Counted from the stretch's first letter, positions 3,662 to 26,955 are shown. The stretch: 32,000 nt of DNA from Actinokineospora alba (GCF_004362515.1 NZ_SNXU01000001.1:3757633-3789632), one strand, 5' to 3'. A program made the numbers and translations. Notes: generated from the letters alone by a model not told the origin.

Positions 3662-3662
3662 C

Positions 3663-4271
3663 ATGGGCGGCGACTGGCCTTATGTCTTGCTGCTGCACGG
3701 CCTCACCGGCTCGGGCCGCGGCCACTGGCAGGGCTGGCTCGCACACGAACTGGCCGACGCGGGCGCGTCGGTCGAGGTCCCGGTGTTCAGCGAACCCGAC
3801 CACCCGTGTCTCGACACGTGGCTGGGCGAACTGAAACACCACCTCGAAGCCGCGCCCGCGAAGACCAAACGAGTCGTCATAGCCCAGGGCGTCGGCGCGG
3901 CACTGTGGCTCCACCACGCCGCCCGGACCCCACTGGACGACCACTCGCTGAGGGTGGACAACGTCCTCCTGGTAGCCCCACCCGGCGACTCCTGGCATGC
4001 CCCGGACGTCCGCGGCTTCACCCCAGTCCCCCTCGACGCAGCAGGCATCCGCCGTGCGGCCGGTTGGACCCAGTTGGCCACCGGCGAGGACGACGAGTGC
4101 CTGCCGGTGGACGAGGCGGTGAAGATGGCGGCGGAGCTGAAGATCGACCTGGACGTGATCCCAGCAGGCGGTGCCTTGGACACGAGGACCGGCTATGGCC
4201 CGTGGCCATCGGTCCTGGAGTGGATCCGCAACCGCCACACCCGCCTGACCGCAGTGGAACCCGCCTCCTGA
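3663..4271 (+). CDS. YdeN/RBBP9-family alpha/beta-hydrolase-fold protein, apparently lacking the Ser and His of the triad
   Basis: N-terminal [18 protein letters not shown] matches the family signature (ilHG..g....HW..WL). The nucleophile elbow position reads AQGVG instead of GHSLG. The Asp motif is retained ([10 protein letters not shown]). The final GGH position reads GGAL. The ATG lies 1 nt after the clpX stop. Confidence 0.6.
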
Positions 4272-4336
4272 CGCAGAATCCCGCTTCCTGCCGCAGAGCA
4301 GGGCGGCCATAGCAGGCAAACGGCCAAATAGAGCAG

Positions 4337-4478
4337 CCTGTGTCTGGCGATCAACGCGCGATCTGGACAGCAGCCCCATCCCGTGAACGCAAGTGGCCAT
4401 CCTGATGGCCTGTTTCTGGTGGTCAACGCGCTTCAAAAGCGGTCCCACCCCCTGAACGCAACGGGCCAGCACCAACGG
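4337..4478. repeat. Two diverged ~70-72-bp direct repeat units leading into the palindromic element
   Basis: Units start at 4337 and 4409, each beginning cctgtKtctggYgRtcaacgcgc and ending ..tgaacgcaa..ggcc.. A third unit start at 4479 begins the palindromic element. One related unit is seen in reverse complement after copy B (about 10909-10950). Confidence 0.6.
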
Positions 4479-4617
4479 CCTGTTTGGGTGGTTCGCCTTG
4501 ATTTGGGGTGAAATGGGCCTAAACTTCCTGCGCGGGTGGGTTTCACCTCCCCACCCTCTTTGCCCGCGCAGGCCCATTTCTAGGGGTCCCCAAATCAAGG
4601 CGAACCACCCAAACAGG
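4479..4617. repeat. Nested-palindromic intergenic repeat, copy A (30-bp terminal inverted arms plus inner stems)
   Basis: Arms are 4479-4508 cctgtttgggtggttcgccttgatttgggg and 4588-4617 ccccaaatcaaggcgaaccacccaaacagg, a perfect reverse complement. Inner stems are gaaatgggcc/ggcccatttc and cctgcgcggg/cccgcgcagg. It lies between the convergent 3' ends of the hydrolase and the esterase. Confidence 0.85.
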
Positions 4618-4643
4618 CACCACAACGCGAGCGAACAAGCAGG

Positions 4644-5522
4644 TCAGGCCTTGCGGCTCACAGCAGGAGCATGCCGCCCCAAGAACCCCAAAACATCCGG
4701 CACAATCCGCCGATAAAACCCATCCCCATGCCCCCCAGGCCCCATGTACCCAACCTCAGGAGAAGCCAGCCGAATAAACTTCCGAGTCCCTTCAATAAAA
4801 TGATCCTCAGTCCCACACCAAACACCCACAGGAACACGCCCAAGCTTCTCCACATTGCGCAGAGGATCGAGCGACGCCCATTCCTGAGTGCTCTTGAACG
4901 CCCGCCGAGTACTCATCTCACGCCACGACATCAGCAGCCCAGGCGAGATCGCCGCGACGGCGGACAGTGGGACGCGCATCTCTTCACGCCGGCGGGCATA
5001 AAGCAAAGCCCCAAACCCGCCCATAGACACCCCGGCGCACGCGAACGGCGTCCCAGTGGCATCCCCAAGTCCCCGAGCCCGCAACCACCGCGGAACCTCC
5101 TCGAGCAACATCGCCATCGCGTTGTCGCCGACCCGGTTCTCGTGCCAGTAGTTGTTGCCGCCGTCCACGGCGATGAACCCGAACGGCGGTAGCGTCCCCG
5201 CCGCCACGCCACGGGCAAGGGCGGCGGGCAGTCCGGTGGGGGCGGCGTGGCGGGCGCGGCCGTGCAGGCCGTGCAGGAGCACGCACATCGGCAGGTTCTT
5301 GGTCGGCAGCTGGGCGGGCAGGATGGTCACGACGTCGACGTCTTGGCCGCGGGCAGCGGAGAACACCCGGTCGGTGCGCACCAGCGGCTCCGGCGCGGCC
5401 CCGGTGGTCACGAGGTCCAGCCACGGCAGCGACCCAGAGACCACCCCGGTCGCCGCCAAGCCGGCGGCGCCCGCGATCAGCAGTGACCGGCGGCTGAGCC
5501 CTGGTCTTCCCCCGTCCCCCAT
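4644..5522 (-). CDS. Secreted (Tat-signal) esterase-family alpha/beta hydrolase
   Basis: N-terminal twin-arginine signal SRRSLLIAGAAGLAATG. Nucleophile elbow GVSMGG. The HGLHG and WCGTEDHF motifs resemble the esterase D / putative esterase family. GGAGGGGG lies upstream of ATG 5522. Confidence 0.75.
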   Translation of the reverse strand: MGDGGRPGLSRRSLLIAGAAGLAATGVVSGSLPWLDLVTTGAAPEPLVRTDRVFSAARGQDVDVVTILPAQLPTKNLPMCVLLHGLHGRARHAAPTGLPAALARGVAAGTLPPFGFIAVDGGNNYWHENRVGDNAMAMLLEEVPRWLRARGLGDATGTPFACAGVSMGGFGALLYARRREEMRVPLSAVAAISPGLLMSWREMSTRRAFKSTQEWASLDPLRNVEKLGRVPVGVWCGTEDHFIEGTRKFIRLASPEVGYMGPGGHGDGFYRRIVPDVLGFLGRHAPAVSRKA

Positions 5523-5699
5523 GCGTCCCCCTCCGACGGACTGCCTTCTCCCCTTAGACGTACCAAGTCAGGCATTCGGTGGCCTGTCAGACGCCTTCGA
5601 TCACCCCATCGTGAGGGTGAACTCGAACGTTTCTCGGTTCACTGCTCCGAGAGTGCACCAAGATCGCTACGGAGCGCACCCGAACCGGCAACAAGATCG

Positions 5700-6881: not shown

Positions 6882-7699
6882 CCGATCCGCCCGACGCCCG
6901 CGTACACGTTCATGGCCGAGTCGCGCAGGAACCCGATCAGCGTCATCCCCTGCTCCTCGGCCAGGTCGGCCGCCAGCGACGACGGCGCCGACACGGCCGC
7001 GAGCACCGGCACCCCGGCCATCGCCGCCTTCTGTACCAGCTCGAACGACGTCCGCCCGGACACCATCAGCACCATCCCGCGCAGCGGCACCCGGTCGGCC
7101 AGCAGGGCCCACCCGAGCACCTTGTCGACGGCGTTGTGCCTGCCCACGTCCTCGCGGACCACCAGCGCCTCCCCGGACGCGGTGAACAGCCCCGCCGCGT
7201 GCAGCCCGCCGGTGCTCTCGAAGACCTTCTGCTGCTCCCGAAGCTGTCCCGGCAGCGTGTGCAGGACATCGGCGGCGACCGTCACGTCGTCCTCGGCCGG
7301 CGAGAACCGCGTCCGCAGCCGCACCGCGTCGAGCGCGGCCTTGCCGCAGACCCCGCAGGACGAAGTCGTGTAGAAGTTCCGCTCCACCCCGACCTCGGGC
7401 GCGGGCACCCCGTCGGCCAAGGCGACGTCGAGGACGTTGTAGGTGTTGCGCCCGTCCGCGTCGGCCCCGTCGCAGTACCGCGCGACGGAGACGTCCTCGC
7501 GGCCGCCGATCACGCCCTCGGTGAGCAGGAAGCCGTGCGCCAGCTCCACATCGTGTCCCGGCGTGCGCATCGTGACCGCCAGCGCCCGCCCGCCGACCCG
7601 AAGCTCCAGCGGCTCCTCCGCGGCCAGCGCGTCCGGCCGCGTGCGCCGCCCGTCGGCGCTCAGCCGCACCACAGACCTGCGCACCGTGACTCGTCCCAT
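6878..7699 (-). CDS. fdhD: Formate dehydrogenase accessory sulfurtransferase FdhD
   Basis: Diagnostic motifs SSCGVCGK and GRHNAVDK, with a length of 273 aa. Confidence 0.93.
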
Positions 7700-7773: not shown

Positions 7774-9081
7774 TCACAGCCGCTGCCAGAGCGCCGGGAC
7801 GTTGGGCGGTTCCCACCCAGGCTGGGACGTGTGTCCCTGCCAGCACTTGTAGCTCGCCCCGCCGTAGGTGACCTGGGCGCCCGCCGCGTACGCGACGTGG
7901 GGCGCCCACGTGCCGCCCGGTGGGACGGTGGTGGTGGTCGGCGAGGTCGTGCCGGTCGGCGGGGTGGTGGTGCTGGTCGGCGGGGTGCCGGTCACGGTCA
8001 GCCGCAGGCCGTAGACGCTGAGGATCTCGTTGACCGGCTGGAAGTAGATCGTCCCGCCGGAGGTGCAGTTGCCCGAACCGCCGGACGTGACGCCCTGGGC
8101 CTGGTCGCCGGTGAGCCAGGAGCCACCGGAGTCGCCCGGTTCGGCGCAGGCGTTGGTCCTGGTCAGGCCGGTGATCGTGCCTTCGGGGTAGGTGACGGAG
8201 GCGTTCTTCTGCTGGATGGTGCCGCAGCGCCAGCCGGTGGTGGAGCCCGAGCGGCACACCGACGCGCCGACCGGGGCCTCGGTGGAGCCCGCGACCGGGA
8301 CCGTGCCCGGGTAGCGGTTGACCAGCGGCCGCGGGGTGTTGCCCGCCGCCGCCCGCACCCAGGCGTAGTCGTTGCCGGGGAAGCTCGACCCGACGACCGT
8401 CCCGCTGGGGTTGGAGGTGGCGGTGCCCGCGCGCCCGCAGTGGCCCGCGGTGACGAAGCCGCCTTCGACGGCGAAGCCGATCGAGCAGCGGCCGCTGCCG
8501 AAGGTGTAGGCGTTGCCGCCGATGATGTCGATCATCGGCTTGGGCGACTCCGTGGACGCCTCGACCCGGACCGCATCGACACCGTTCGCACCCGCCCACG
8601 CTTTCGCCGCGTCCTGGCTGCCTTGCTTGGCCAGGACGACGACGGAGTTGGTGGTGACGTCGACGTACCAGCCCGGCACGCCCGCGGGCGCGGACTTCGC
8701 CGCTGTGTCGAGCCGGTCCTTGAGGGCGCCGAGCTGGGCTTCGCTGCGTGCGACGGTCTGCGGGATCGCGCCGAGGGCACGGACCTGGTCGGCCTTGGTC
8801 TGGTCGGTCACCGCGACGATGAAGCGGGTCGCGTCGCCGTTGAGCCAGGCGCCGCCGAAGGACGCGCCGAGCCGGGCCCGCAGGGCGGCCTCGGTCTGGG
8901 CGGCGACCTTCTCCCGGCCGAGGCGCTGCCGGGCTTGCTCCGGGGTGATGTGCAGGTCTCGGGCGAGTGCGGCCTCCATGGACGTGTCCGCCGCGGCGGA
9001 CGGTGTGCTGAGCGCGACGGCGGTGGTGAAGCCGGCCACGCTGAGTGCCGCCAACGCGGCGGCGGTGATCTTTCGGTTCAT
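7774..9081 (-). CDS. Secreted S1E (streptogrisin / alpha-lytic) serine protease with C-terminal CBM5/12-like chitin-binding domain (streptogrisin C-like)
   Basis: ORF 7774..9783. The true start is ATG 9081 (MNRKITAAALAALSVAGFTTAVALSTPSAAA, a signal peptide). A prodomain follows. Catalytic contexts are TAGHCG and GDSGGS. A T/P-rich linker leads to the C-terminal AQVTYGGASYKCWQGHTSQPGWEPPNVPALWQRL. GGAGAG lies upstream of the ATG. Confidence 0.9.
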   Translation of the reverse strand: MNRKITAAALAALSVAGFTTAVALSTPSAAADTSMEAALARDLHITPEQARQRLGREKVAAQTEAALRARLGASFGGAWLNGDATRFIVAVTDQTKADQVRALGAIPQTVARSEAQLGALKDRLDTAAKSAPAGVPGWYVDVTTNSVVVLAKQGSQDAAKAWAGANGVDAVRVEASTESPKPMIDIIGGNAYTFGSGRCSIGFAVEGGFVTAGHCGRAGTATSNPSGTVVGSSFPGNDYAWVRAAAGNTPRPLVNRYPGTVPVAGSTEAPVGASVCRSGSTTGWRCGTIQQKNASVTYPEGTITGLTRTNACAEPGDSGGSWLTGDQAQGVTSGGSGNCTSGGTIYFQPVNEILSVYGLRLTVTGTPPTSTTTPPTGTTSPTTTTVPPGGTWAPHVAYAAGAQVTYGGASYKCWQGHTSQPGWEPPNVPALWQRL

Positions 9082-9138
9082 CCGCTCTCCAAGGCAGGGT
9101 GAGGTGGGACGCTCCGAGCTAAGCCCTCCACCGCCATA

Positions 9139-9154
9139 ATTGGTACATACCAAT
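9139..9154. promoter_or_regulatory. AT-rich operator-like palindrome ATTGGTA-ca-TACCAAT in the divergent protease/oxidoreductase promoter region
   Basis: 7+7 bp inverted repeat, followed by a half-site copy tGGTCATACC (9156-9165). It overlaps a CATAAT -10-like hexamer (9135-9140). It fits the GntR-type GT-Nx-AC pattern. The region is unusually AT-rich for this genome. Confidence 0.45.
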
Positions 9155-9180
9155 CTGGTCATACCGTTAAAGTCCGAAGG

Positions 9181-10704
9181 GTGAACAGGGACAGCTACGA
9201 CGTCGTCGTTGTCGGCGGTGGGCACAACGCGCTGGTCGCGGCGGCCTACCTGGCCAAAGCCGGGCGCTCGGTGGTGGTGCTGGAACGCCTGGGCCACACC
9301 GGTGGCGCCGCGGTGAGCGCGAGCCCGTTCCCCGGGGTGTGGCTCTCGCGCTACTCGTACCTGGTGAGCCTGCTGCCGGACCGGATCGTGGCGGACTTGG
9401 GTCTGCGGCTGGATCTGCGCTCCCGTGCGGTGTCCTCGTACACCCCGACCGTCCGCGACGGCCGCGCCACCGGCCTGCTGGTCGAGCGCGATCCCGGACG
9501 GGTGACCGCGGCGTCGTTCCGCGCGCTGACCGGCTCGGACGCCGAATTCGGGCGCTGGCAGGAGTTCTACGGCGACCTCGCCCGGGTGGCCCGCGCGCTT
9601 GCGCCGACAATGCTCGACCCGCTCCCATCCGCGGCGGCGGCCCGCGACCTGGTAGTCGGGGCGGCAGGGGAGAAGGTCTGGCGGCAGATTTTCGAACGCC
9701 CGCTGGGGGAGGCGATCGAGGAGACCTTCACCGACGACCTGGTGCGCGGCGTCGTCGCCACCGACGCCCTCATCGGCACGCACACGTCGCTCGGGTCACC
9801 GGACCTGTTGGCCAACCGGTGTTTCCTCTACCACCTGATCGGCAACGCGACGGGGGAGTGGCGGGTTCCGGTCGGCGGCATGGGTGCGGTCACCGGAGAA
9901 CTCCTGCGCGTGGCGCGGGAAGCGGGCGCCGAGATCGTGACCGGCGCTGAGGTGACGAGGGTGGACGCGGACGGCAAGTCAGCCGAAGTCACCGTTGGAG
10001 GCCGTGTGATCGGCGCGGGGTTTGTCCTGTCGGGGGTGGCGCCCGCCGTACTCGACCGGCTGCGGGGACGCCCGGCGGTATCGCCTGTCGGCGCCCAGTT
10101 GAAGATCAACCTGCTGTTGGACCGGCTGCCGCGGCTGCGTTCCGGCGTCGACCCGCGGCAGGCGTTCGCGGGGACGTTCCACCTTGATGAGTCCTATGTG
10201 GAGCTGGAGAGCGCCTACCAACTCAGCCTTTCCGGGAAGGTGCCGGAATTTCCGCCGGGCGAGATGTACTGCCACACGCTCACCGACCCGTCCATCCTGG
10301 CACCGGAACTCGCCGCGAGCGGGGCCCACACGCTGACGTTGTTCGGGCTGCAGTTGCCGCCCGCCCTGTTCGCCGACGACACCATGTGCGGCGAACTGGT
10401 CGATCGCTTCGCGGCGGGGTTGGACCGGCACCTACTCGACCCGATCGCCGACTGCGTGGCCCGTGACGCTGACGGAAATCCCTGCGTCGAGGCGCGAACA
10501 CCGCTCGACCTCGAGGAGGAACTGCGGATGCCGGGCGGAAACATCTTCCACGGGGATTTGTCGTGGCCGTTCGCCGACGAAGGGGGCTGGGGCGTGGAGA
10601 CCGATGTGCCGAACCTGTTCGTGTGCGGCAGCGGTGCTCGGCGTGGTGGCGGGGTGAGCGGGATTGGCGGTCACAACGCGGCGATGGCGGTGCTCGGGGG
10701 TTGA
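9181..10704 (+). CDS. FAD/NAD(P)-dependent oxidoreductase, phytoene desaturase (CrtI)-like family
   Basis: N-terminal Rossmann dinucleotide motif YDVVVVGGGHNALVAAAYLAKAG..VVVLE. Length is 507 aa, with a C-terminal GG.SG.GG flavoprotein motif. GTG start. Confidence 0.8.
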   Translation: MNRDSYDVVVVGGGHNALVAAAYLAKAGRSVVVLERLGHTGGAAVSASPFPGVWLSRYSYLVSLLPDRIVADLGLRLDLRSRAVSSYTPTVRDGRATGLLVERDPGRVTAASFRALTGSDAEFGRWQEFYGDLARVARALAPTMLDPLPSAAAARDLVVGAAGEKVWRQIFERPLGEAIEETFTDDLVRGVVATDALIGTHTSLGSPDLLANRCFLYHLIGNATGEWRVPVGGMGAVTGELLRVAREAGAEIVTGAEVTRVDADGKSAEVTVGGRVIGAGFVLSGVAPAVLDRLRGRPAVSPVGAQLKINLLLDRLPRLRSGVDPRQAFAGTFHLDESYVELESAYQLSLSGKVPEFPPGEMYCHTLTDPSILAPELAASGAHTLTLFGLQLPPALFADDTMCGELVDRFAAGLDRHLLDPIADCVARDADGNPCVEARTPLDLEEELRMPGGNIFHGDLSWPFADEGGWGVETDVPNLFVCGSGARRGGGVSGIGGHNAAMAVLGG

Positions 10705-14030: not shown

Positions 14031-14102
14031 GCGCCCATCCTCTGCCCCGCGGGGTAGGGATGCCATACGGTCGGAGCGCAAGTCACGCGAGGAGGCGAAC
14101 GG

Positions 14103-14279
14103 ATGCCCACAGCCGACGACCTGGCCACCGCCCTGAGCCGCGCCCGGGAGGCGTTCGAGGCGACCACCCGTGGCGGTGGCGCCGCCTGCGGGTCCGCTGC
14201 CGACGCCTACGCCGGGTTGCGGTCGGCGCTGCTCGCCGAACTCGACGTCTGCCTCGCGGTCCTGGACGGCGACGAATGA
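14103..14279 (+). CDS. 58-aa helix-turn-helix-hairpin protein (mini WXG100-like?), not in the supplied ORF track
   Basis: ATG 14103 lies 7 nt after a strong SD, GAGGAGG (14089-14095). Translation: MPTADDLATALSRAREAFEATTRGGGAACGSAADAYAGLRSALLAELDVCLAVLDGDE. Third codon positions are almost all G/C. The stop TGA 14277-14279 overlaps the next ATG (ATGA). The R-rich N-terminus of track ORF 14060..15661 is the out-of-frame reading of this gene. Confidence 0.6.
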   Translation: MPTADDLATALSRAREAFEATTRGGGAACGSAADAYAGLRSALLAELDVCLAVLDGDE

Positions 14280-15661
14280 GCGGGCCGGTGCAGCTCACGT
14301 CGCTGGTACGCAACCTCAACGACCTCGGCGCGATGCTCAACCCCGTCAAGCTCGTGACGGTCGTGGCGAGCGTGGTCAACGAGATCAAGGAACCCCCGCC
14401 CGGCGACCCGGACGCCCTGGACGTCCTGGCAGCCGCTTACCGGGTCGCAGGCGCCACACTGACCCCGCTGGGGCCCCAGGTGGCCGCGCTGGGCGCTGAG
14501 CCGCTCCCCGCGACCGGCCGTGTCCTCGACCGGGTGGCCGCGACCATGACCGCCACCGGCGACACCCTCGCCGAGCTCGCCACGTCCGTCCGTGAACACC
14601 AGCGCAGGCACGCCGAGCTCCACCAGGCCCTCGCCGCCGCCGCGCACGACGCCACCCACGTCGGCTCCGTGCCGATGCCGGACCCGGTCGGGATCGCCAA
14701 GCTCGTCGGCGTCGTCGGCGACCTGATCAGCGGGTGCGTGGCCGTCTACACCGACGCCCTGACCGCCGCCGACCGCGCCGCGGGCAGGCTCACCGACCTG
14801 CGCGGCGCCGCCCGAGCCGCCGCGGCGGTCGACGGCGGGCTGTCCCCGAAGGACGCGGTCGCGCTCGCCGACATCGGGCTTGAGTCCGCCCGCTACGACC
14901 CCGGCCTGTTCGGGCTGACCCAGCTCGCCCGGCTGGGCGCGGCGAAGTCGGCGGAGGTGGCGGAGCTGCTGGCCTCCGCGTCCTCCGACGCGGAGCGCGC
15001 GTGGCTGTTCAAGGCGGTCGGCGCGGGCCATGGCGTCGAGGTCCTGCGCGGGTTCGCTGAGGCCATCCGCGGCCGGGACGAGACCTGGCTGCGGTCGCAC
15101 CTGTCGCTGGTCGACCGGGGCGACGAGGCCGCGCAGAGCCGGATGGGCGTCGCCGTGCGCCAGTACGAGGCCACGACCTGCGGCACCACGGTCCTCATCG
15201 TCGCCCGCGCGGAACACGACCCGGTCTACGCCCTGACCCTCACCCGCGACGACTTCCAACCGGCTTTCGCCGCCGAGCGCGCGGTGGTCCACAACGAGAC
15301 CAACGTCGTCTACCCGCAGGCCGTGGGCACCTCACCCAAGGGCGTCGCCGCCTACCTGACCCGACACCTCGGCACCCGGTACGACTGGCGGCTGGTCGAC
15401 GACACCGACCGCCGCGAGATCTCCCGCACCCTGCGTGAGGTGATGGCCGCGGTCGACCAAGGGCACCCGGTGCCGCTGCTGGTCGGCGGGATCGTCCCGC
15501 GCCACTACGTCCTGGTCGTCGGGCACGAGCGCGGTGTCCTGCTGGTCTTCGAGCCCACCGCGGGCCGCACCGTCGCGGTCCCGGAACAGGCGTTCCTCGA
15601 CGGCGACCTCAAATCCGCCCTCGGCTTCGACCACGTCCAGTCCGCGATCCTGCCGAGCTAG
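14276..15661 (+). CDS. 461-aa protein: N-terminal T7SS-substrate-like helical domain fused to C-terminal peptidase C39-like (Cys/His) domain
   Basis: Start at ATG 14276 (M73 of ORF 14060..15661). The N-terminal GDPDALDVLAAAYRVAGATL parallels GDADQIAAYAQTWANVAKE of the RHS toxin N-domain in this window. In the C-terminus, QYEATTCGTT has Gln six residues before Cys-Gly, as in C39 peptidases. PRHYVLVVGHERGVLLVFEPTAG follows the HYVV...DP.G pattern, with Glu in place of Asp. Confidence 0.7.
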   Translation: MSGPVQLTSLVRNLNDLGAMLNPVKLVTVVASVVNEIKEPPPGDPDALDVLAAAYRVAGATLTPLGPQVAALGAEPLPATGRVLDRVAATMTATGDTLAELATSVREHQRRHAELHQALAAAAHDATHVGSVPMPDPVGIAKLVGVVGDLISGCVAVYTDALTAADRAAGRLTDLRGAARAAAAVDGGLSPKDAVALADIGLESARYDPGLFGLTQLARLGAAKSAEVAELLASASSDAERAWLFKAVGAGHGVEVLRGFAEAIRGRDETWLRSHLSLVDRGDEAAQSRMGVAVRQYEATTCGTTVLIVARAEHDPVYALTLTRDDFQPAFAAERAVVHNETNVVYPQAVGTSPKGVAAYLTRHLGTRYDWRLVDDTDRREISRTLREVMAAVDQGHPVPLLVGGIVPRHYVLVVGHERGVLLVFEPTAGRTVAVPEQAFLDGDLKSALGFDHVQSAILPS

Positions 15662-16692
15662 CTCGGGCAGCCGCTCTCAGCGGGCAGCGGAGCGGTGGGG
15701 TCGAAGTACGTGTCGCGGTCGCGGCGGGGCACCCGGTGGATCTTGTCGCCGTCGCGGAACGCCGGGGCGAGGAAGCCCTTCTTGTACTCCACGCACGAGA
15801 TCGAATAGCCGTAGCCGCCGACGCCGCCGTACCAGAGGCCCTGGCTGCCCGCGGTCCACCGGCCACCGGAGCGCAGCACATAGTCGACCTCGGCGCGGAC
15901 CACGACGACGCTGTCCATCGGGTCGTTGGTCTTGGGGCCCTCGAAGGCGTAGGCGAACACGTAGTTGGTGTGCACCACCAGCTCACCCGGCCCACCGGCC
16001 TCGGTCCACATCCGGCCGTTGACCTTCGGCTCGACCGGCAGCAACGGGCTGCCCTTCGACACCAGGCTCACCAACGCCTGGGCCTGTGGCTCGTTGCCGG
16101 TGCCGAAAAGCGGCGCCAACTGCTTGCGCGCGTCCGGCGCGAGCAGCGCCAGGTACCGGGACGGGTCGTGCTGGACGAGCAACTGGGGGTCGAGCCTGCT
16201 CGCCACGAGGGCGTCGCGAACCAGTGCGGTGGCCGACGCGACCTGCTCCTTGGTGAACTCGCCGATCTGCATCGGCGGCGGCACGACGATCCCCGCGGCC
16301 CCGTCGACCCAACCCGAGGCGGGGGTGTGGTCGAACGGCCGGTTGGAGTCGTTGGTGAGGCGGTCGGAGATGACCGGCGGGGCCGCGGTCCCCGGCTCCT
16401 CGGTCTTGGCGAGCACCTTGTCGAACATGCCGACGCGGACCATCAGCATGAGCACGGCGACGATCGCCACGAGCACCATCGAGGTGACGAGCCAGCGCTC
16501 CACCTTGCGGCGGCGGGTGGCCCGCACCATCGCACGCACGTCGGCCCGCGCCGACGCCCGCACACGGTCGCGCCACTCGGCGTCTCGCAACGCCGCGTGA
16601 TCGCCGAACTCACGTTGGTCCACCGGCCCCCCAAGGGCGCTCCAGAACCGTTCCCGGCCTGGTTCGACTGACGACTTCCTCGTGCTCACCAC
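15658..16692 (-). CDS. Single-pass membrane-anchored protein with extracytoplasmic domain, unknown family (paralog 1)
   Basis: A basic cytoplasmic tail is followed by the TM segment WLVTSMVLVAIVAVLMLMV and then a ~260-aa domain. It shares motifs with the adjacent gene: DGAAGIVVPP, LLPV.PKV.GRMW.E.GG.G.L.V.T, and C-terminal C...FDP....S.CP. The GTG start is uncertain (no SD). Confidence 0.6.
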   Translation of the reverse strand: MVSTRKSSVEPGRERFWSALGGPVDQREFGDHAALRDAEWRDRVRASARADVRAMVRATRRRKVERWLVTSMVLVAIVAVLMLMVRVGMFDKVLAKTEEPGTAAPPVISDRLTNDSNRPFDHTPASGWVDGAAGIVVPPPMQIGEFTKEQVASATALVRDALVASRLDPQLLVQHDPSRYLALLAPDARKQLAPLFGTGNEPQAQALVSLVSKGSPLLPVEPKVNGRMWTEAGGPGELVVHTNYVFAYAFEGPKTNDPMDSVVVVRAEVDYVLRSGGRWTAGSQGLWYGGVGGYGYSISCVEYKKGFLAPAFRDGDKIHRVPRRDRDTYFDPTAPLPAESGCPS

Positions 16693-16778: not shown

Positions 16779-17534
16779 TCATCGAGGGCAGGACGACCCG
16801 GATCCGATAGGCCGATCGGGGTCGAAGAGCGCGTCCGGAAGGCCCCCTGCACCCGTCACGGCGTCGACGCCGCCACTCTGGTGGCCGCACTCGGCGGGGT
16901 AACCCTGGGTCTCGTTGAGCCAGACGCCCCGGTCGGCCTCGGGCCTGCCCTCGCCCACGACGGTGAGGTCCATGTCCAGCCGGGCGACCTGGACCCGCGG
17001 GCCATCGTCTGTGTGCAGCGGGTAGACGACCACGAACCGGGTCTTGACCAGCAGCTTTCCCGTGCCACCCGACTCGGCCCACATCCGGCCGCGCACCTTC
17101 GGCGGCACCGGCAGCAGGGTCGTGTCGGGCCCGAGCCGCACGACGAACCGGTCGACCCGCTGGGGGTCGGCCAGGACCGCGCGCAGGCTCTCCTGGTCAC
17201 CCTCGGCGAACAGCCGCAGGTAGGGCTCGTAGTCCACGCCCATGATCACCGCGGGTTCCAGCATCGCCGCGGCCACCACGTCGCGGGCGCGGGCGTAGGC
17301 GTCGGCGATCGCCTCGGTCGAGTGGGTGCCGATCGCCTCGAACGGGGGGACCACGATCCCGGCGTCGCCGTCGGCCCAGTCCTGGGCCGGAGTCCCGACG
17401 AAGGGCCGCGCGGGGTCGGCGGCCACGGTCTCGCGCCGGGCGCCGTCGCCGAACCAGCCCGCCAGGTTCGTCAGGATGAACATGAAGACCATGGCGCCGG
17501 CGAGCACCACCGCGCCGACCGGAACCCTCCGCAT
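16779..17534 (-). CDS. Membrane-anchored protein, paralog 2 of 15658..16692
   Basis: N-terminal TM or signal anchor MRRVPVGAVVLAGAMVFMFILTNLAGW. It has the same conserved blocks as paralog 1 (DGDAGIVVPP, LLPVPPKVRGRMWAESGGTGKLLVKT, two C-terminal Cys). Confidence 0.6.
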   Translation of the reverse strand: MRRVPVGAVVLAGAMVFMFILTNLAGWFGDGARRETVAADPARPFVGTPAQDWADGDAGIVVPPFEAIGTHSTEAIADAYARARDVVAAAMLEPAVIMGVDYEPYLRLFAEGDQESLRAVLADPQRVDRFVVRLGPDTTLLPVPPKVRGRMWAESGGTGKLLVKTRFVVVYPLHTDDGPRVQVARLDMDLTVVGEGRPEADRGVWLNETQGYPAECGHQSGGVDAVTGAGGLPDALFDPDRPIGSGSSCPR

Positions 17535-20302: not shown

Positions 20303-20398
20303 GATAGGGACACCCAACTACACGAAACCGCCCCCGCGGTCGCCGTCGAGATCGGTACTGTCGATCGCACCGGACGTCGATCTTGTGGGGAGCGGACC

Positions 20399-20920
20399 TT
20401 GACCGAGCCAGTCTTCGGCGTCGACGCGGCAACCACCAACGCGGGCCTCGACCAGTGGGCCGCCGACATCCAAGCCAAGGCCGAACGCTATTCGGCCATG
20501 GAGCGCGAGGTCACCGCGGTCACCGCCACCGAGTCGTCCAGCGACGGCTCGATCCGGGTCACCGTCGACTCCGCGGGCGCGATCAAGGATCTCCAGTTCA
20601 CCGAGGACCTCAAGCGCCTGCCCGCCACCCGGATGGCCGAGCTGGTGCTCACCACCATGCGCAAAGCCCAGGCCCGCATCTCCGACCAGGTCGCCGAGAT
20701 CGTCCAGACCCGCGTCGGCGACGACCCGGAGACCACCGAGGCGGTCGTCGGCGCCTACCGTGCGCGGTTCCCCGATCCGGAGCCCGAGCAGGACGAGGCC
20801 GACGGGACCATGCGACTGGGCCAAGTCGACGAAGATGACCAACCCGGGGAACGGCCCCGCCCGCCGCGGCGTCCCAGGCCCGAGGACGACGACGATTTCG
20901 GTGGCTCGATCTTCCACTGA
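20399..20920 (+). CDS. YbaB/EbfC-family protein with acidic/Pro-rich C-terminal tail
   Basis: The core SSDGSIRVTVDSAGAIKDLQFTEDLKRLPATRMAELVLTTMRKAQARI matches the YbaB/EbfC pattern (G.V.V.V...G....L.i). TTG start lies 6 nt after GGGGAG. It is the first gene of the toxin operon. Confidence 0.7.
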   Translation: MTEPVFGVDAATTNAGLDQWAADIQAKAERYSAMEREVTAVTATESSSDGSIRVTVDSAGAIKDLQFTEDLKRLPATRMAELVLTTMRKAQARISDQVAEIVQTRVGDDPETTEAVVGAYRARFPDPEPEQDEADGTMRLGQVDEDDQPGERPRPPRRPRPEDDDDFGGSIFH

Positions 20921-20934
20921 TTCCTGGGGGTGTC

Positions 20935-21243
20935 ATGCCGGACGACAAGTACGACGTCGTCATCGACGAGCTGCGCGCGCACGCGGCCCGACTCGATGGC
21001 TTGTCCGCGCGGCTCAACACGGCCGCCAACGCGGGCAATGAGGTGACCATGGGCACCGAGGCGTACGGGAAGATCTGCGCGTTCTTCGTGCCCATCGTCC
21101 AGTCCGTCTCCATGCCGGGGCTGGACGCGCTGGCGAGCACGGCGGGCCGGATGGCCGAGACGGCGCAAGGCGTGAAGGCCACGGCCACCGCCTACGAGGA
21201 GACCGAGCAGGGCAACACCAGCGCGCTCGGTGGTCCCCGATGA
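20935..21243 (+). CDS. EspC/DUF2580-like small helical protein (type VII secretion-associated family)
   Basis: 102 aa. VVIDELRAHAARLDGLSARL......AYGKICAFFVP......L.....GRMAETAQGVKATATAYEETEQ follows the pattern of ESX secretion-associated EspC-like proteins. The stop overlaps the ATG of the RHS gene (ATGA at 21240-21243). Confidence 0.65.
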   Translation: MPDDKYDVVIDELRAHAARLDGLSARLNTAANAGNEVTMGTEAYGKICAFFVPIVQSVSMPGLDALASTAGRMAETAQGVKATATAYEETEQGNTSALGGPR

Positions 21244-24200
21244 CGAATCCCCTGATCGCGCAACGACAGGACTCGACCACCGCCATCAGCGGCATCGGCA
21301 TCGCCGAGTCCGCCGTCGACCTGCACAACGGCATCGAGTCGAAGTCGTGGGTGGAAGCAGGCATCGGCGGTGTCGGCACCGGCCTGGAGATGCTGTCGCT
21401 GGCTCTCGACCCGGTCGGCACCCTGCTCAGCTACGCCGTGTCATGGCTGATGGAGCACGTCAAACCGCTGTCGGACGCCCTCGACTGGCTCTGCGGCGAC
21501 GCCGACCAGATCGCCGCCTACGCCCAGACGTGGGCGAATGTGGCCAAGGAGACCGGAAAGGTCGCCGAGGACTTCGGCAACGAGGTCAAGAACGGCACCG
21601 CGGGCTGGGCAGGCGAGGCCGCCGACGCCTACCGCGCCTCCGCCGCCCTGCAGAACGAACAGGTCTCCGCGGCCGCGACCTGCGCGGACTCCATCGGCTC
21701 CACAGTCCAGGTCGTCGGCGTCCTGGTCGGCGCGGTCCGCGAGATCGTCCGCGACCTCGTCGCCGAGTGCGTCGCCACCCTGATCGCCCGCATCCCGCAG
21801 TGGATAGCCGAAATCGGCGGCACCCTCGGCATCGCCACCCCCCACGTCGTCGCGTCGGCCACCGCGCTGATCGCCAAGTGGGTCAACCGGATCAAGGACT
21901 TCATCAAGGCCCTCACCAAGTCCCTGGACTCCCTTTCGGGCCTGCTGAAGAAACTCGACGAGATCTGGGCGGGCATCAAGAAGTCCCTCCCCGGCACCCG
22001 CAGCCCTGACGTCACCCCCACCCGAGCATCGGACGGGGTTACCTCCCCGAACGCCTCGACCACGACGCCATCCGGCTCGACCTCGCCCAGCAGCGCCAGT
22101 CCCGACGGCTCTTCGACCAGCCCGTCCAGCACCACAACCCCAAGCGGCACAACGTCACCGGACACGTCGACCACCTCGCCGAGCAGCACCTCGCCGAGCG
22201 GCACGACCTCCCCGAACGGTTCATCGAGCACCAGCCCCAACGGCTCGCGCAGCCAGGTGGGCGACGACCCCAAGGCCAGCGCCCGGCCCGAGCCGAACCG
22301 GAAGACCTGCGGCGACCCGATCGACGTCGCGTCCGGCGAGATGCTGCTCACCCAGGACGATGTCCGCCTGGGCGGCGCTCTTCCGCTGGTGCTGTCGCGA
22401 ACGCACCTGTCGACCTACCGGATCGGCACCCGGTTCGGCGCGTCCTGGGCGTCGACTCTTGATCAGCGTCTTGAGGTCGACGACGAGGGCGTCTGTTTCG
22501 TCACCGAAGACGGCATGGTGCTGGTCTACCCGCATCCAGGCGACTCGCCGGTGTTGCCTGCCGAGGGGCCCCGGTGGCCGTTGCTGCGCTCCGCGGACGG
22601 CGGATACTCGGTCACCGACCCGGAGTCCGGCCACACCAGGATGTTCGCCGCGGCGACCGGCCCCATCCGGCCGATCATTTCGATCAATGACCGCAACGGA
22701 CACCGCGTCGACTTCGATCGCGGTGCGGATGGCGTGGCCACCGCGGTGCGTCACTCCGGTGGCTACCGAGTCGACGTGCGCAGCGAAGCCGGGCTGGTCA
22801 CGGCACTGGTGCTGGCCGGGGCCGACGAGATCACCCTGATCCGGTACGGCTACGACGCGGCGCGCAGGCTCACCGAGGTCATCAACTCCTCTGGAGCCGC
22901 ACTTCGGTTCGACTACGACTCCGCGGGCCGCATCACGCGGTGGCAGGACCGAAACGAGATGTGGTATCGCTACGGCTACGACGAGCGCGGCCGGTGCGTG
23001 CTCAACGAGGGCGCGGACGGTTACCTCTCCGGCGCTTTCGAGTACCGCGAACGGCTGACCGTGTACACGGATTCCCTCGGCCACCGCACGGAATTCCACC
23101 TGAACGACGCCTACCAGGTAGTCCGCGAGGTGGACCCGCTCGGTGGCGTGACACTGTCCGATTGGGACCGGCACGACCGGCTGCTGGCACGGACCGACCC
23201 GCTCGGTCGAGTGACGCGCTACCGCTACGACGACGACGGCAACCTCGTCGGCATCGTCCGCCCCGACGGTACGGAGTCTTCCGCGACCTACAACGCGCTG
23301 GGGTTGCCGCTGACGGTGACCGAGGTCGACGGCGCCGTGTGGCGACGCACCTACGACGACTGCGGCAACCTGCTCTCCATCACCGACCCGATGGGCGCGG
23401 TGACGACGTTCGATCTCGACGCTCATGGCAATGTCACCGCGATCACCGACCCCCTCGGCGCCGTGCGTCGGGTGGAGTCCGACCAAGCGGGTCTTCCCGT
23501 CGTGGTCACCGATCCGCTCGGTGCGAGTACCCGATACAGCCGTGACCGGTTCGGGCGCATCGCCGCCATGACAGACCCGCTCGGTGGCAGCACCCGACTG
23601 GGCTGGACGATCGAGGGCAAGCTCATCTCCCGCACCCAGGCGGACGGCGCGGTCGAGCGCTGGCGGTACGACGGCGAGGGCAATCTTGTCGAGCACATCG
23701 ATCCCGCCGGGAACACCACGAGGACGGCGTACACGGGGTTCGATCAGCCCGCTTGGCAGGTCGGCGCCGACGGAGCGCGCTTGGAGTTTGGCTACGACAC
23801 GAACCTGAGGCTCACGTCGGTCACCAACCCGCAGGGTCTCGTCTGGCGCTACACCTATGACGCTGTCGGCAATCTTGCCGAGGAAACCGACTTCAACGGC
23901 AGGCGGCTGACGTACTCCTACGATGCCGCGGGCCAGCTGGTGGGCCGCGCGAACGGCTTGGGCGAGCTCGTCTCCTTCGACCGTGACGTGCTCGGACGCT
24001 TGCGCGCCAAGCATTCCGGGCCCGCGACGACGTCCTACGAACACGACGCGCTCGGGCGGATGACCAGGACGACAAGTCCGGACGCCGATGTCCACTTCGA
24101 GCGGGATGTCCTGGGCCGGGTCCTCGCGGAGACCACCAATGGTCGAACTGTTCGGTCGGTGTACGACCCGCGGGGCAACCGAATCCGCCGCGAGACCCCC

Positions 24201-25757
24201 AGCGGCGCGGTCAGCGAATGGGAGTACGACGCGGCCGGCAACGCCGTGGCACTGTTCACCGGCGGCAGGCGGATGTCGTTCGGCTACGATGCGGCAGGTC
24301 GGGAGGTCCACCGCACGCTCGACTCCGGTACGGCGCTCGCCCAGGATTGGGATGCCAACCACCGCCTGCGGTCGCAGACACTCACCGCACGTGGCATGAA
24401 CGTCCAGCGACGGGACTACCAGTACCGGCTGGACGGGTGCCTGACCGCGGTCGACGACCGGATCGCGGGCGCACGCCGCTACGACCTGGACCCGGCGGGT
24501 CGTGTCACCGCGGTGCACGGCGCCGGGTGGACCGAGCGCTACGCCTACGACGCCGCGGGCAATCTCACCCAGGCGGCGTGGCCCGGCGAGCATCCCGCTG
24601 AGGGAACACGGGAGTACACGGGAACCAGGGTCCGCCGGTCGGGCACCGTCCACTTCGAACACGATGTGCAGGGGCGGGTCCTGCTTCGGCGGCAGCGTGC
24701 TCTTTCCGGCCAGATCCGGGCGTGGACCTACACCTGGGACGCTGAAGACCGCTTGGTCGCCGTCACCACCCCGGACGGCGCCCGGTGGCGCTATCGCTAC
24801 GACGGTCTGGGAAGGCGCACCGCCAAGCAGCGACTGGCCTCGACCGGCACCGAGGTGGTCGAGCAGGTCGACTTCGCCTGGGACGGTCTCGTCCTCGCCG
24901 AGCAGACCACGTCCGGAGCGGTTCTCGACGGACCCGACCCGGCGGAACGCACCACCACGTGGGAGTTCGAGCCGGGCACGTTCCGGCCGGTCGCGCAGCG
25001 GGAACGGGTTCGCACCTCACCGCAGACGTGGATCGACGCGCAGTTCTACGCCCTGATAACCGACCTGATCGGCACGCCGACGGAGATGGTCGACTCGGAC
25101 GGCGCACTGGCGTGGCGTTCGCAGACCACGCTGTGGGGTGCCGCCTTGGCTGGGCTGGGTGGGGGTCCGTACTGCCCGCTGCGGTTTCCCGGTCAATACC
25201 ACGACGTGGAAACCGGGCTCAACTACAACGTCCACCGCTACTACGACCCGGCCACCGGGCACTACGGTTCCGCCGACCCGCTTGGCCTGCTGGCGGGACC
25301 GAACCCGTTCGCCTACGTCGGCAACCCGACGCTTCGGTCGGACCCGTTGGGCCTCACGGATTGCGCGCGGGCCAAGAAGCTGGCGAACAAGACCAGCGAG
25401 CGCGCGCGGAACGGCAGCGTCCGGGAGGCGCCGAACTATCATGGGCGGCTTTCGCGGGAACGCGAACTCGAGATCCTGTCCAACCCGGACGGCGTCTACC
25501 ACTCGACGGGTTCGGGCGGCCGGTTCATCTACCGCCAGGGCGACGACATCGTGATCACCGAAGGTCCTGGAAGCAAGGCGGGCCAGTTGGTGACCAGTTA
25601 CGGGCCATCCGGTCCGCGCGGTGACAGCGGTGCGGCGATCTTCGGCGGGTCCTCGGCTGATCCTGGGATGCCTATCACCCACGACATGATCGTCAACGGG
25701 ACGATCCCGACACCGGATGGCGGGACCGTTCCGCCCGCCATCCAGATCCTTCCCTAA
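21240..25757 (+). CDS. Polymorphic toxin: N-terminal WXG100-like (T7SS-type) domain, S/T/P linker, DUF6531-like domain, RHS/YD-repeat shell, and variable C-terminal domain
   Basis: 1505 aa. Residues 1-250 are helical, with LDWLCGDADQIAAYAQTWANVA and the W-x-G motif GWAGEAADAY (nt 21606-21614). CGDPIDVASGEML marks the RHS N-terminal plug. More than 20 YD repeats are present (e.g. RYGYDAARRLT, YRYDDDGNLV, YSYDAAGQLV). The core end reads YYDPATGHYGSADPLGLLAGPNPFAYVGNPTLRSDPLGL. Confidence 0.92.
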   Translation: MTNPLIAQRQDSTTAISGIGIAESAVDLHNGIESKSWVEAGIGGVGTGLEMLSLALDPVGTLLSYAVSWLMEHVKPLSDALDWLCGDADQIAAYAQTWANVAKETGKVAEDFGNEVKNGTAGWAGEAADAYRASAALQNEQVSAAATCADSIGSTVQVVGVLVGAVREIVRDLVAECVATLIARIPQWIAEIGGTLGIATPHVVASATALIAKWVNRIKDFIKALTKSLDSLSGLLKKLDEIWAGIKKSLPGTRSPDVTPTRASDGVTSPNASTTTPSGSTSPSSASPDGSSTSPSSTTTPSGTTSPDTSTTSPSSTSPSGTTSPNGSSSTSPNGSRSQVGDDPKASARPEPNRKTCGDPIDVASGEMLLTQDDVRLGGALPLVLSRTHLSTYRIGTRFGASWASTLDQRLEVDDEGVCFVTEDGMVLVYPHPGDSPVLPAEGPRWPLLRSADGGYSVTDPESGHTRMFAAATGPIRPIISINDRNGHRVDFDRGADGVATAVRHSGGYRVDVRSEAGLVTALVLAGADEITLIRYGYDAARRLTEVINSSGAALRFDYDSAGRITRWQDRNEMWYRYGYDERGRCVLNEGADGYLSGAFEYRERLTVYTDSLGHRTEFHLNDAYQVVREVDPLGGVTLSDWDRHDRLLARTDPLGRVTRYRYDDDGNLVGIVRPDGTESSATYNALGLPLTVTEVDGAVWRRTYDDCGNLLSITDPMGAVTTFDLDAHGNVTAITDPLGAVRRVESDQAGLPVVVTDPLGASTRYSRDRFGRIAAMTDPLGGSTRLGWTIEGKLISRTQADGAVERWRYDGEGNLVEHIDPAGNTTRTAYTGFDQPAWQVGADGARLEFGYDTNLRLTSVTNPQGLVWRYTYDAVGNLAEETDFNGRRLTYSYDAAGQLVGRANGLGELVSFDRDVLGRLRAKHSGPATTSYEHDALGRMTRTTSPDADVHFERDVLGRVLAETTNGRTVRSVYDPRGNRIRRETPSGAVSEWEYDAAGNAVALFTGGRRMSFGYDAAGREVHRTLDSGTALAQDWDANHRLRSQTLTARGMNVQRRDYQYRLDGCLTAVDDRIAGARRYDLDPAGRVTAVHGAGWTERYAYDAAGNLTQAAWPGEHPAEGTREYTGTRVRRSGTVHFEHDVQGRVLLRRQRALSGQIRAWTYTWDAEDRLVAVTTPDGARWRYRYDGLGRRTAKQRLASTGTEVVEQVDFAWDGLVLAEQTTSGAVLDGPDPAERTTTWEFEPGTFRPVAQRERVRTSPQTWIDAQFYALITDLIGTPTEMVDSDGALAWRSQTTLWGAALAGLGGGPYCPLRFPGQYHDVETGLNYNVHRYYDPATGHYGSADPLGLLAGPNPFAYVGNPTLRSDPLGLTDCARAKKLANKTSERARNGSVREAPNYHGRLSRERELEILSNPDGVYHSTGSGGRFIYRQGDDIVITEGPGSKAGQLVTSYGPSGPRGDSGAAIFGGSSADPGMPITHDMIVNGTIPTPDGGTVPPAIQILP
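21990..22274 (+). repeat. Low-complexity Ser/Thr/Pro-rich linker coding region inside the RHS gene
   Basis: Residues ~251-345 read TSPNASTTTPSGSTSPSSASPDGSSTSPSSTTTPSGTTSPDTSTTSPSSTSPSGTTSPNGSSSTSPNGS, with reiterated (S/T)(S/T)SP units. Confidence 0.85.
25356..25754 (+). other. 133-aa C-terminal domain after the RHS DPLGL boundary (presumed toxin module, family not recognised)
   Basis: It begins right after DPLGL (25341-25355): TDCARAKKLANKTSERARNGSVREAPNYHGRLSRERELEILSNPDGVYHSTGSGGRFIYRQGDDIVITEGPGSKAGQLVTSYGPSGPRGDSGAAIFGGSSADPGMPITHDMIVNGTIPTPDGGTVPPAIQILP. It has no HNH, HExxH, deaminase or obvious nuclease signature that I can recognise. Confidence 0.6.
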
Positions 25758-25770
25758 TAGGGTGGAGCCT

Positions 25771-26508: not shown

Positions 26509-26538
26509 CCACAAGGTCATCGATTCGAGAGGCAGGGG

Positions 26539-26955
26539 ATGGGCGACAGCGGACGTGCGGCCATCCTCCGCTCTGCCGGTTTCGAGGTCGTCGGCACCGT
26601 GGAGTCCGCGGGAGGCCTGCTTCCGGAGCAGGCCTGGCGCCGCGTCATCAATCTGGACGTGGTCCCCGTCGCCGAGGTCGACGACGATGACCTGGACCGC
26701 GTCGACGCCGAGTGGCGCGGGCTTGCCGACGAGAGCGGGCTGTTCGCGGACGACGGCTCGTTCCTCATCAGCCCGCCCGGTCCCGGCGCCATGCGGTTGC
26801 CCTGGGTGCGGGTCCGGTTGACGGCCGCGACAAAGCTGGCCGGGCAGCTCCACGCCAGTCCCGGTCAGCCCGAGTTCGTCACGGCGGCGTTGGACGGGCA
26901 CGTGGTGCTTGGCGTCACCAGCGAAGAGCATGGAGTGTGGCTGGTCCGGGGCTAG
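26539..26955 (+). CDS. Hypothetical 138-aa acidic protein (possible second or orphan immunity protein)
   Basis: ATG lies after GAGGCAGGGG, 30 nt downstream of the preceding gene on the same strand. No recognisable motifs. Its stop overlaps the convergent GNAT stop within GCTAGC. Confidence 0.55.
   Translation: MGDSGRAAILRSAGFEVVGTVESAGGLLPEQAWRRVINLDVVPVAEVDDDDLDRVDAEWRGLADESGLFADDGSFLISPPGPGAMRLPWVRVRLTAATKLAGQLHASPGQPEFVTAALDGHVVLGVTSEEHGVWLVRG

Follow-up and report, generated by a model that had tools for sequence, protein, structure and literature searches.

The stretch analysed here, called the window, comprises 32,000 nucleotides of the Actinokineospora alba genome (GCF_004362515.1, NZ_SNXU01000001.1:3757633-3789632), high-GC actinobacterial DNA with 69.6% GC, and the subject of this work is a pair of overlapping plus-strand genes of 58 and 461 codons within it. 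A Shine-Dalgarno sequence, GAGGAGG, can be read directly at 14089–14095 and is separated by the 7-nt spacer CGAACGG from the ATG at 14103, which opens the small open reading frame (ORF; 14103–14279). Its TGA stop codon (14277–14279) overlaps the ATG of the large ORF at 14276 in the tetranucleotide ATGA (14276–14279), an arrangement that suggests translational coupling, and the large ORF extends to 15661. As set out below, the small product is assigned as a truncated helical partner protein of the EspC/WXG100 superfamily (Tap-like) and the large one as a helical N-domain fused to a papain-fold cysteine peptidase. An earlier reading of the DNA by itself (hereafter the sequence-only reading) had pointed to the strong Shine-Dalgarno sequence, its 7-nt spacing, the high GC content at third codon positions (GC3) and the ATGA overlap, and all of these hold: GC content at codon positions 1, 2 and 3 of the small ORF is 0.77, 0.61 and 0.91, the normal coding signature of this genome. 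An alternative gene model in which the large gene is extended N-terminally to 533 amino acids (aa), with a start at 14060, was rejected, because a GC3 of 0.61 marks that frame as noncoding over the DNA of the small ORF, and because homologs begin at MSGPVQLTS.

In DNA of 70% GC, a 58-codon ORF is by itself weak evidence for a gene, and the case was therefore built on conservation. Searches by tblastn and ORF extraction located an ortholog of the small ORF directly upstream of the large gene in 17 of the 17 loci first analysed (loci and homologs carry L or P numbers here), with overlaps of 4, 11 or 14 nt. Loci L026–L032 have the identical layout, with overlaps of 1–11 nt by their gene calls, so that the gene pair proved to be conserved across genomes, a check that the sequence-only reading had proposed. 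Every locus with a full N-domain carries an ortholog of the small gene overlapping the large gene upstream. The window proteins share about 94% identity with those of Actinokineospora xionganensis, and between the two species the small gene differs by 6, 3 and 13 substitutions at codon positions 1, 2 and 3 and by one in-frame 6-nt indel. Nei-Gojobori ratios of nonsynonymous to synonymous substitution rates (dN/dS) were 0.16–0.64 for the small gene and 0.14–0.52 for the large gene. Both genes are real. The description of the small ORF as untracked stands only in so far as it fell below the length cut-off of the first stage, since its A. xionganensis ortholog is annotated by NCBI as a hypothetical protein of 60 aa. 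When the locus was scanned for promoters and terminators, none was found. As a lesson for annotation, ORFs that miss the length cut-off and overlap the starts of WXG-type genes are real partner genes.

The large protein has 69 close homologs, all of them hypothetical proteins from Pseudonocardiales and relatives. A profile search of 1.8 billion representative sequences recovered at least 1283 clusters (50% identity) at E ≤ 1e-3, 218 of them at E ≤ 1e-30; most members are 490–540 aa long and match the profile over their full length, and named ones include Phycicoccus and Nocardia. Conservation was assessed in two alignments, A1 with 42 close and A2 with 41 more distant homologs, 83 sequences together. 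An AlphaFold2 model of the 461-aa protein (predicted local distance difference test score, pLDDT, 82.5; predicted template modelling score, pTM, 0.78) has three parts: helices at residues 45–62, 77–127 and 137–174, a bundle of short helices at 214–276, and an alpha/beta domain at 291–461. All the motifs named in the sequence-only reading are present, namely GDPDALDVLAAAYRVA (residues 43–58), QYEATTCG (296–303), HYVLVVG (410–416) and VFEPTAG (424–430).

The alpha/beta domain (residues 291–461; plus strand, 15146–15658) was assigned to the papain fold, C39 type, from Foldseek comparisons and from Pfam matches of homologs. It contains Q296-x5-C302 (15161–15181), the predicted oxyanion-hole glutamine and catalytic cysteine, invariant in A1 and present in 39 of the 41 A2 sequences; H410 (15503–15505), the predicted catalytic histidine, present in 42/42 and 40/41 sequences, respectively; and E426 (15551–15553), the predicted third member of the triad, 16 residues past the histidine, in a column that holds E, N or D only (83/83). 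T301, G303, Y411 and P427 are likewise invariant across A1, and Q296, C302 and H410 are each conserved in at least 95% of the A2 sequences, so that the catalytic Cys and His on which the sequence-only reading had staked its proposal are indeed conserved. The spacing of the glutamine and the cysteine and the acidic or amide residue at +16 correspond to the arrangement in the ComA peptidase domain, Q11/C17/H96/D112. The top fold match of the model in the PDB was the C39 domain of PCAT1 (7n87; Foldseek E 9.6e-3, probability 1.00, TM-score normalized by target 0.61), followed by AvrPphB and SpeB, with CtaG structures among the weaker matches. An independent model of a relative with 26% identity matched AvrPphB, the Josephin-like BpJOS, the C39 domain of PCAT1, GtgE and UfSP, with modest E-values. 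Peptidase_C39_2 (PF13529) is weakly matched by six A1 and six A2 homologs (best E 3.8e-5) and not by the window protein. A profile search of PDB sequences returned no C39 chain and nothing else for the peptidase part, and a fold search of BFVD gave no useful annotation. Together, the conserved Q-x5-C, H and E/N/D and the fold matches bear out the C39-type papain-fold domain of the sequence-only reading, and the C-terminal domain is best described as a predicted C39-like papain-fold cysteine peptidase with its putative catalytic residues intact. It is also the most conserved segment of the protein (59–61% identity, versus 46–49%).

The core is preceded by a helical pre-domain, residues ~214–290 (14915–15145; ERAWLxKAxxAGH…FAxxIRG…WLxxHLSLVD), defined by alignment and model, which always accompanies it, even in an OmpA-fused relative. 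In that relative, P0214 (626 aa, metagenome), pre-domain and core are preceded by a stretch of acidic, low-complexity sequence and by an OmpA-like peptidoglycan-binding domain, which stand in for the WXG-type N-domain, a composition that hints at action at the cell wall.

At its other end the large protein opens with an N-terminal leader (14276–14413; Q6, L14, N22-P23) that ends in PPPGDP (residues 40–45), of which P41 and G43 are invariant in the alignments, and the leader with its PPPGDP is retained even by the most reduced relatives. A PPE/WXG100_2-like helical hairpin and bundle follows (residues ~45–200; 14408–14875), assigned from Pfam matches of homologs, from Foldseek and from the model. 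WXG100_2 (PF25547) is matched by 25 of the 42 A1 and 8 of the 41 A2 homologs at E<0.01 (best 2.8e-9), WXG100 by 9/42 A1 homologs, and PPE by distant members. WXG100_2 is also the family of the N-domain of the RHS toxin encoded elsewhere in the window, and the parallel between both N-domains that had been drawn by eye thus has a counterpart in Pfam; the likeness shows via profiles only, a direct BLASTP comparison of the two domains being not significant. Foldseek matched the N-domain weakly to PPE41 (2g38_B, E 0.22, probability 0.90; 4kxr_B, E 0.69), and the N-domain of the second model, also weakly, to 2g38_B, 4w4k_B and EspB (6xzc). phmmer and profile searches of PDB sequences yielded coiled-coil noise and weak EsxA matches for this part. 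The family consensus is PxGDP…LPxxWxG. At the WxG loop, where homologs read LPxxWxG-GAAT, the window protein has a gap of about 19 columns in A1 (82–105), and no W-x-G was found in its residues 56–125; alignment with complete homologs puts the deletion, which includes an adjacent part of helix 1, at 14489–14506, between …LGAEP and LPATG….

The small protein occurs in two forms. A long form of 102–105 aa is found in Thermocrispum, several metagenome-assembled genomes (MAGs) of Pseudonocardiaceae, Micromonosporaceae and Phycicoccus; a short form of 50–69 aa is found in the window, other Actinokineospora, Actinophytocola, Labedaea and L015, and L030 is similar. Long orthologs of the L011 and L013 type match PF10824 (T7SS_ESX_EspC) at 25.5 and 33.6 bits, above the cut-off of 23.5, with weak matches to WXG100, EspB_PE and TIGR03930. 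Compared with them, the 58-aa protein is short of about 17 N-terminal and 28 C-terminal residues and falls below the helix-turn-helix length of about 100 aa expected of the WXG100 superfamily. It keeps the core hairpin, …W/F-x-x-A-T-R-G-G-x-A-C-G…A-Y…E-L-x-V, whose turn segment (…ACG…) aligns roughly with the WxG position of the WXG100 model; this and the PF10824 matches of the long orthologs agree with the WXG-turn likeness noted earlier for its centre. Short partners in general retain the central hairpin alone, the N-extension and the entire tail being gone, with the possible exception of L030, whose reading frame and tblastn match indicate that part of the N-terminal extension may remain. 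The tail of the long partners carries the motif YxxxD/E, in the forms YRAME, YQHTD, YQDTD, YQSSD, YQHAD, YQDME and YRSQD, in 12 of the 13 long-partner loci (L008, L011, L013, L014, L019–L022 and L026–L029; the exception is L018), and the motif is also present in the partner of L031 and absent from that of L032. It is missing from the window protein and from all 12 other short orthologs. In the metagenomic protein P0130 a partner carrying YDQLD is naturally fused in frame to the large protein. BLASTP of a long partner against the EspC-like protein of the RHS operon was not significant, that relationship being visible only through profiles.

Complete relatives possess a third component, a gene directly 3′ of the peptidase gene that encodes a lipoprotein of 190–260 aa with a lipobox and the motifs GWTVY..C, VSYxA and LFPDxPP…C. 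It was found in L011 (two copies), L013, L014, L018, L019, L021, L022, L026/27, L028, L029, L030, L032 (two copies) and P0010, and L031 has a 345-aa lipoprotein of weak similarity in the same position. In six loci the gene shares the strand of the peptidase gene, which it overlaps except in L019; elsewhere the two are convergent. Genes flanking the trio vary between lineages. An NCBIfam search with the lipoproteins found nothing. In L028 and L013 an EspG chaperone gene is located divergently upstream of the module. In the complete members the lipoprotein would act as an immunity protein inhibiting the peptidase outside the membrane, by analogy with known envelope immunity proteins, and since a lipoprotein guards the complete relatives, we infer an extracytoplasmic (cell-envelope) target. 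The absence of a same-strand immunity gene, from which the sequence-only reading had argued against a classical toxin, does not carry that argument, given that complete members have the lipoprotein on either strand and that the window lineage has lost it. Two further observations concern this gene. Tandem lipoprotein duplicates follow the peptidase gene in L011 (4141–5860) and L032 (6530–7863), reminiscent of immunity-gene arrays, and in L014 a second lipoprotein fragment (6966–7490) adjoins a short second fragment of the peptidase gene (7178–7273).

The three components show a pattern of joint loss. Among long-partner loci the canonical WxG is present in all but L018, which has a divergent N-domain, and the lipoprotein in all but two Thermocrispum loci. 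In the 13 reduced loci, the window included, the partner tail is missing throughout, no canonical WxG occurs, and the lipoprotein is lacking in all but L030. Around the WxG loop, the window and A. xionganensis (L001) have a deletion (a gap of about 19 columns), and in the other reduced loci this region is shortened or degenerate. A six-frame search of the 32-kb window with a hidden Markov model found no lipoprotein homolog, and a search in named Actinokineospora genomes gave metagenomic matches only; this latter search was word-limited, so that absence elsewhere in the genome is unproven. The erosion is specific to the peptidase pair, because the RHS operon of the same window retains both WxG and an EspC-like partner ending in YEETE. 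In PE25-PPE41 it is established that YxxxD/E of the partner lies beside the WxG turn (restated in Benedict et al. 2026, PMC13444075), and from this geometry the deletions of the partner tail and of the WxG loop would have removed the same end of the bundle. The small-partner plus T7SS-substrate architecture proposed by the sequence-only reading (T7SS, type VII secretion system) is thus recovered by way of the homologs, and the window copy itself has neither YxxxD/E nor WxG. Since both halves of the composite T7SS signal are missing, secretion of the window copy is not assumed. Loci can be placed in a series of reduction that starts with complete modules and passes through L030, which has lost the tail but still has the lipoprotein, and through the window type to the partner-less A. 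guangxiensis locus L016 and P0055–P0058, where the N-domain is shrunken (proteins of 411–418 aa) and the peptidase intact. In Thermocrispum agreste (L020) the large gene is split by a 7.2-kb insertion into an N-domain part (1443–2606) and a peptidase part (9821–10636), the upstream partner being intact. This insertion carries a tyrosine recombinase (2669–3682) and a P-type ATPase (3645–5693).

From these sequence comparisons, the reading that we favour, with a probability of about 0.6, is that the pair would be a reduced, Eat-like member of an Actinomycetota-wide three-gene effector module of the actinobacterial T7SS (T7SSa/ESX), having lost its canonical T7SS signal and its lipoprotein. In the complete module, a partner of about 100 aa, EspC/Tap-like and with a C-terminal YxxxD/E, would be translationally coupled to the following gene, whose product of about 500 aa would bundle with it through the WxG-bearing PPE/WXG100_2-like hairpin and so display the composite T7SS signal. 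The EspG genes beside the module in L028 and L013 are a link to T7SS, and the natural fusion P0130 is one to binding between partner and large protein. The cargo would consist of the helical pre-domain and a peptidase with a papain fold of C39-like topology and a Cys-His-Asn/Asp/Glu triad, and the adjoining lipoprotein would restrain this enzyme outside the membrane in the manner of EatI and other envelope immunity proteins. In the lineage of the window the module would have been inherited vertically between an fdh-like gene and valS while the partner was cut to a tail-less 58-aa hairpin, the WxG loop was deleted and the lipoprotein gene disappeared; the predicted catalytic residues, the N-domain, the partner and the coupling are still under purifying selection. 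The 58-aa protein probably still pairs 1:1 with the shortened N-domain of a predicted active peptidase, and the lineage may have lost its canonical export signal together with its requirement for the lipoprotein. Two observations point in opposite directions here. The N-domain, the PPPGDP leader and the partner are under purifying selection, which speaks for a targeting or assembly function that is still needed; the disappearance of signal motifs and lipoprotein together speaks against continued delivery of the enzyme to the envelope along the canonical route.

The pair sits in the core tig-clpP1-clpP2-clpX … fdhD … valS region. Gene order is alike in Actinokineospora, Actinophytocola and Labedaea, with the fdh-like gene (minus strand), the small and large genes (plus), one or more SCO2583-family genes (minus) and valS (plus), and in more distant lineages, too, valS lies at most 5 kb away. 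A reading of the pair as a polymorphic toxin was rejected, the C-terminal domain being the most conserved part and the locus being syntenic across genera. Downstream in the window, the minus-strand genes at 15658–16692 (TMa) and 16779–17534 (TMb) encode two paralogs that cross the membrane once and have an extracytoplasmic domain, are distant relatives of the NCBIfam 'SCO2583 family membrane protein' and share the conserved C-terminal motif FDPxxPLPAxSGCP; TMa converges with the peptidase gene, their stop codons overlapping by 4 nt. A second SCO2583-like copy exists in the window-like Actinokineospora loci L001–L004 only, plus the metagenomic L030.

Other genes of the window belong to different systems. 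The block at 20303–26551 is an insertion of about 6.2 kb with four genes, which encode a YbaB-like protein (20399–20920), an EspC-like partner (20839–21243), a WXG100_2-RHS toxin (21240–25757) and a 263-aa ORF (25717–26508). It is missing in A. xionganensis, where the homolog of 26509–26955 follows valS directly. In the sister MAG L004 an internal deletion fuses the 5′ part of the YbaB-like gene to the last 33 RHS codons; the 263-aa ORF is still there, with 95% identity, and the arrangement resembles an orphan immunity gene next to the remnant of a toxin tip. On the minus strand at 7774–9783, a 669-aa ORF combines an alpha-lytic protease prodomain with a C-terminal CBM_5_12 module for binding chitin or cellulose, apparently a secreted protease unrelated to the pair.

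Several findings weigh against a reduced T7SSa module. T7SS machinery or core genes were not found in the 32-kb window, and synteny in the core genome together with a non-variable C-terminus is atypical of an interbacterial toxin. The 58-aa protein has no match at all in Pfam or NCBIfam, so that its EspC/WXG100 membership is by orthology only, and the 461-aa protein has no match in either collection; the domain assignments all draw on homologs and Foldseek, whose matches have weak E-values (about 1e-2). The fold matches are to protein and peptide proteases, not to wall hydrolases of the NlpC/P60 or CHAP type. An AlphaFold2 model of the P0130 fusion gave no confident packing of the partner segment (pLDDT <50) and is for that reason uninformative on how the partner packs. 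The Thermocrispum loci L008 and L020 are of the complete type yet have no lipoprotein, and L030 is reduced yet has one, which means that the three losses are not strictly linked. Finally, the motif correlation is phylogenetically clustered, and one or two events could account for it.

What became of the effector in the window lineage can be seen in more than one way. The losses invite the view of an effector caught mid-domestication in Actinokineospora, Actinophytocola and Labedaea, in which the facing ends of the signal and the immunity gene were lost, the peptidase and the mini-partner may be kept for an endogenous function and sister species drop the partner; we put this forward tentatively, as possible. 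A rival view takes the locus for a domesticated or decaying relic, its peptidase retained for a cell-internal role or heading towards a pseudogene and its partner a leftover stabilizer. The visible series from complete modules down to the partner-less L016 and P0055–P0058, the T. agreste gene split by a mobile insertion and the location in the core tig-clpP-clpX-valS region all agree with such a fate, but the dN/dS of both genes is well under 1 and the catalytic residues do not vary among three genera, so that the window copy is not a pseudogene, and a cytoplasmic role gives no obvious reason for the PPPGDP leader, the helical N-domain and the coupled partner. We regard a relic as rather unlikely.

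Alternatively, the pair could still work as a T7SS-exported antibacterial or envelope effector, protection being given by the SCO2583-family proteins. TMa convergently abuts the peptidase gene in the position that the lipoprotein has in L028, L029 and L030; TMa and TMb each span the membrane once and have an extracytoplasmic domain, and in the survey of Eat-type loci immunity proteins may have lipoprotein signals or transmembrane helices (PMC13444075); their motif F-D-P-x-x-P-L-P-A-x-S-G-C resembles L-F-P-D-x-P-P…C of the lipoprotein; and the purifying selection on N-domain and partner would suit a still-exported protein. The two families showed, however, no significant relationship (hhalign E 0.07, probability 0.8%; hmmsearch near noise), which leaves a diverged lipoprotein or immunity homolog unproven, and loci that have the lipoprotein (L030, P0010) carry SCO2583-like genes beside valS as well, so that these do not replace it; for both reasons the SCO2583-like genes were not counted in the module. 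Neither half of the canonical composite signal is left, either, and a still-working exported effector seems quite unlikely to us. The nature of the enzyme itself was also considered. A close homolog, P0055, is named 'BtrH N-terminal domain-containing protein' by NCBI, CtaG appeared among the fold matches, and Cys-His-Asp/Asn chemistry is common to BtrH- and CtaG-type enzymes, so that the C-terminal domain might be a papain-fold acyltransferase or transglutaminase-type enzyme instead of a peptidase. Yet the best fold matches of two independent models are proteases (PCAT1 C39, AvrPphB, SpeB, BpJOS and GtgE), the Q-x5-C spacing and the residue at +16 match those of ComA, and no locus has biosynthetic neighbours, which makes a non-peptidase enzyme very improbable. 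A reduced T7SSa module with a peptidase cargo is the account that we carry into the comparison below.

On that account, the actinobacterial T7SSa layout of Tap, helical effector and lipoprotein would be extended to a papain-fold, C39-like peptidase payload, in a family that is large (at least 1283 clusters) and annotated only as 'hypothetical protein'. The reduction series amounts to a natural experiment on the parts of the composite signal that export requires; it could also reveal whether the lipoprotein confers immunity and how an effector fares once its export has ceased.

Among known systems, the closest is the Eat locus of mycobacteria, which is ESX-4 dependent and comprises the partners TapA1 and TapA2, the toxin EatA with a helical N-domain and a GH183 domain, and the lipoprotein inhibitor EatI; the paper that established this layout by experiment (Benedict et al. 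2026, PMC13444075) also surveyed Actinomycetota and reports Eat-type loci across them, many with payloads whose function is not known. The order of small partner, helical N-domain with C-terminal enzyme, and lipoprotein recurs in complete relatives of the window pair, and the window pair shares the upstream small helical partner gene and the helical N-domain with a C-terminal enzyme; in both systems T7SS motifs are placed on the bundle of partner and N-domain. By contrast to Eat, the payload of the window family is a predicted C39-like papain-fold peptidase where Eat has a glycoside hydrolase, the partner gene is single where Eat has two, and the window copy lacks the lipoprotein, YxxxD/E and WxG, with no adjacent gene demonstrably related to the lipoprotein. 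Its locus is, moreover, syntenic in the core genome and not strain-variable. The window pair is a motif-eroded newcomer to an already known kind of system.

Likeness to the PE/PPE-EspG system (PE25-PPE41-EspG5, PDB 2G38 and 4KXR) lies in a small YxxxD/E partner and a larger partner with a WxG hairpin, in the Foldseek match of the N-domain to PPE41 and in the EspG gene that adjoins the module in two loci. The window family differs in having no PE or PPE sequence signatures, in the weakness of its fold matches (E 0.2–0.9) and in its fused enzymatic cargo, and the window copy in having lost the signal end of the bundle. With Peptidase C39, as in the domains of PCAT1 and ComA, the C-terminal domain shares the papain fold, the glutamine six residues before the cysteine and an acidic or amide residue 16 after the histidine; unlike these, it lacks a fused ABC transporter and a nearby double-glycine leader substrate (no ABC-exporter fusion or bacteriocin-like neighbour was seen in 32 loci), stays under all Pfam thresholds, has Glu as third residue and is preceded by an extra helical pre-domain. 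Tox-PLC39 was compared by its catalogue description: it is listed for Bacteroidetes, Chloroflexi and Firmicutes only, with export by type II or type VI secretion systems or Photorhabdus virulence cassettes and no immunity protein (Zhang et al. 2012, PMC3482391). It shares with the window protein a C39-like papain-fold domain placed C-terminally on a secretion-targeted protein, whereas the window pair is actinobacterial, has a WXG-type N-domain and a lipoprotein partner in its family, and its C-terminus is not polymorphic. The nearest comparison in space is the RHS operon of the same window (20399–26508), where an EspC-like partner gene likewise overlaps the gene for a protein starting with WXG100_2. 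That operon retains WxG and YxxxE, includes an extra YbaB-like gene and forms a 6.2-kb insertion that is specific to the strain and of which a sister genome has a deletion variant; the peptidase pair, by contrast, is conserved and syntenic and has lost its motifs.

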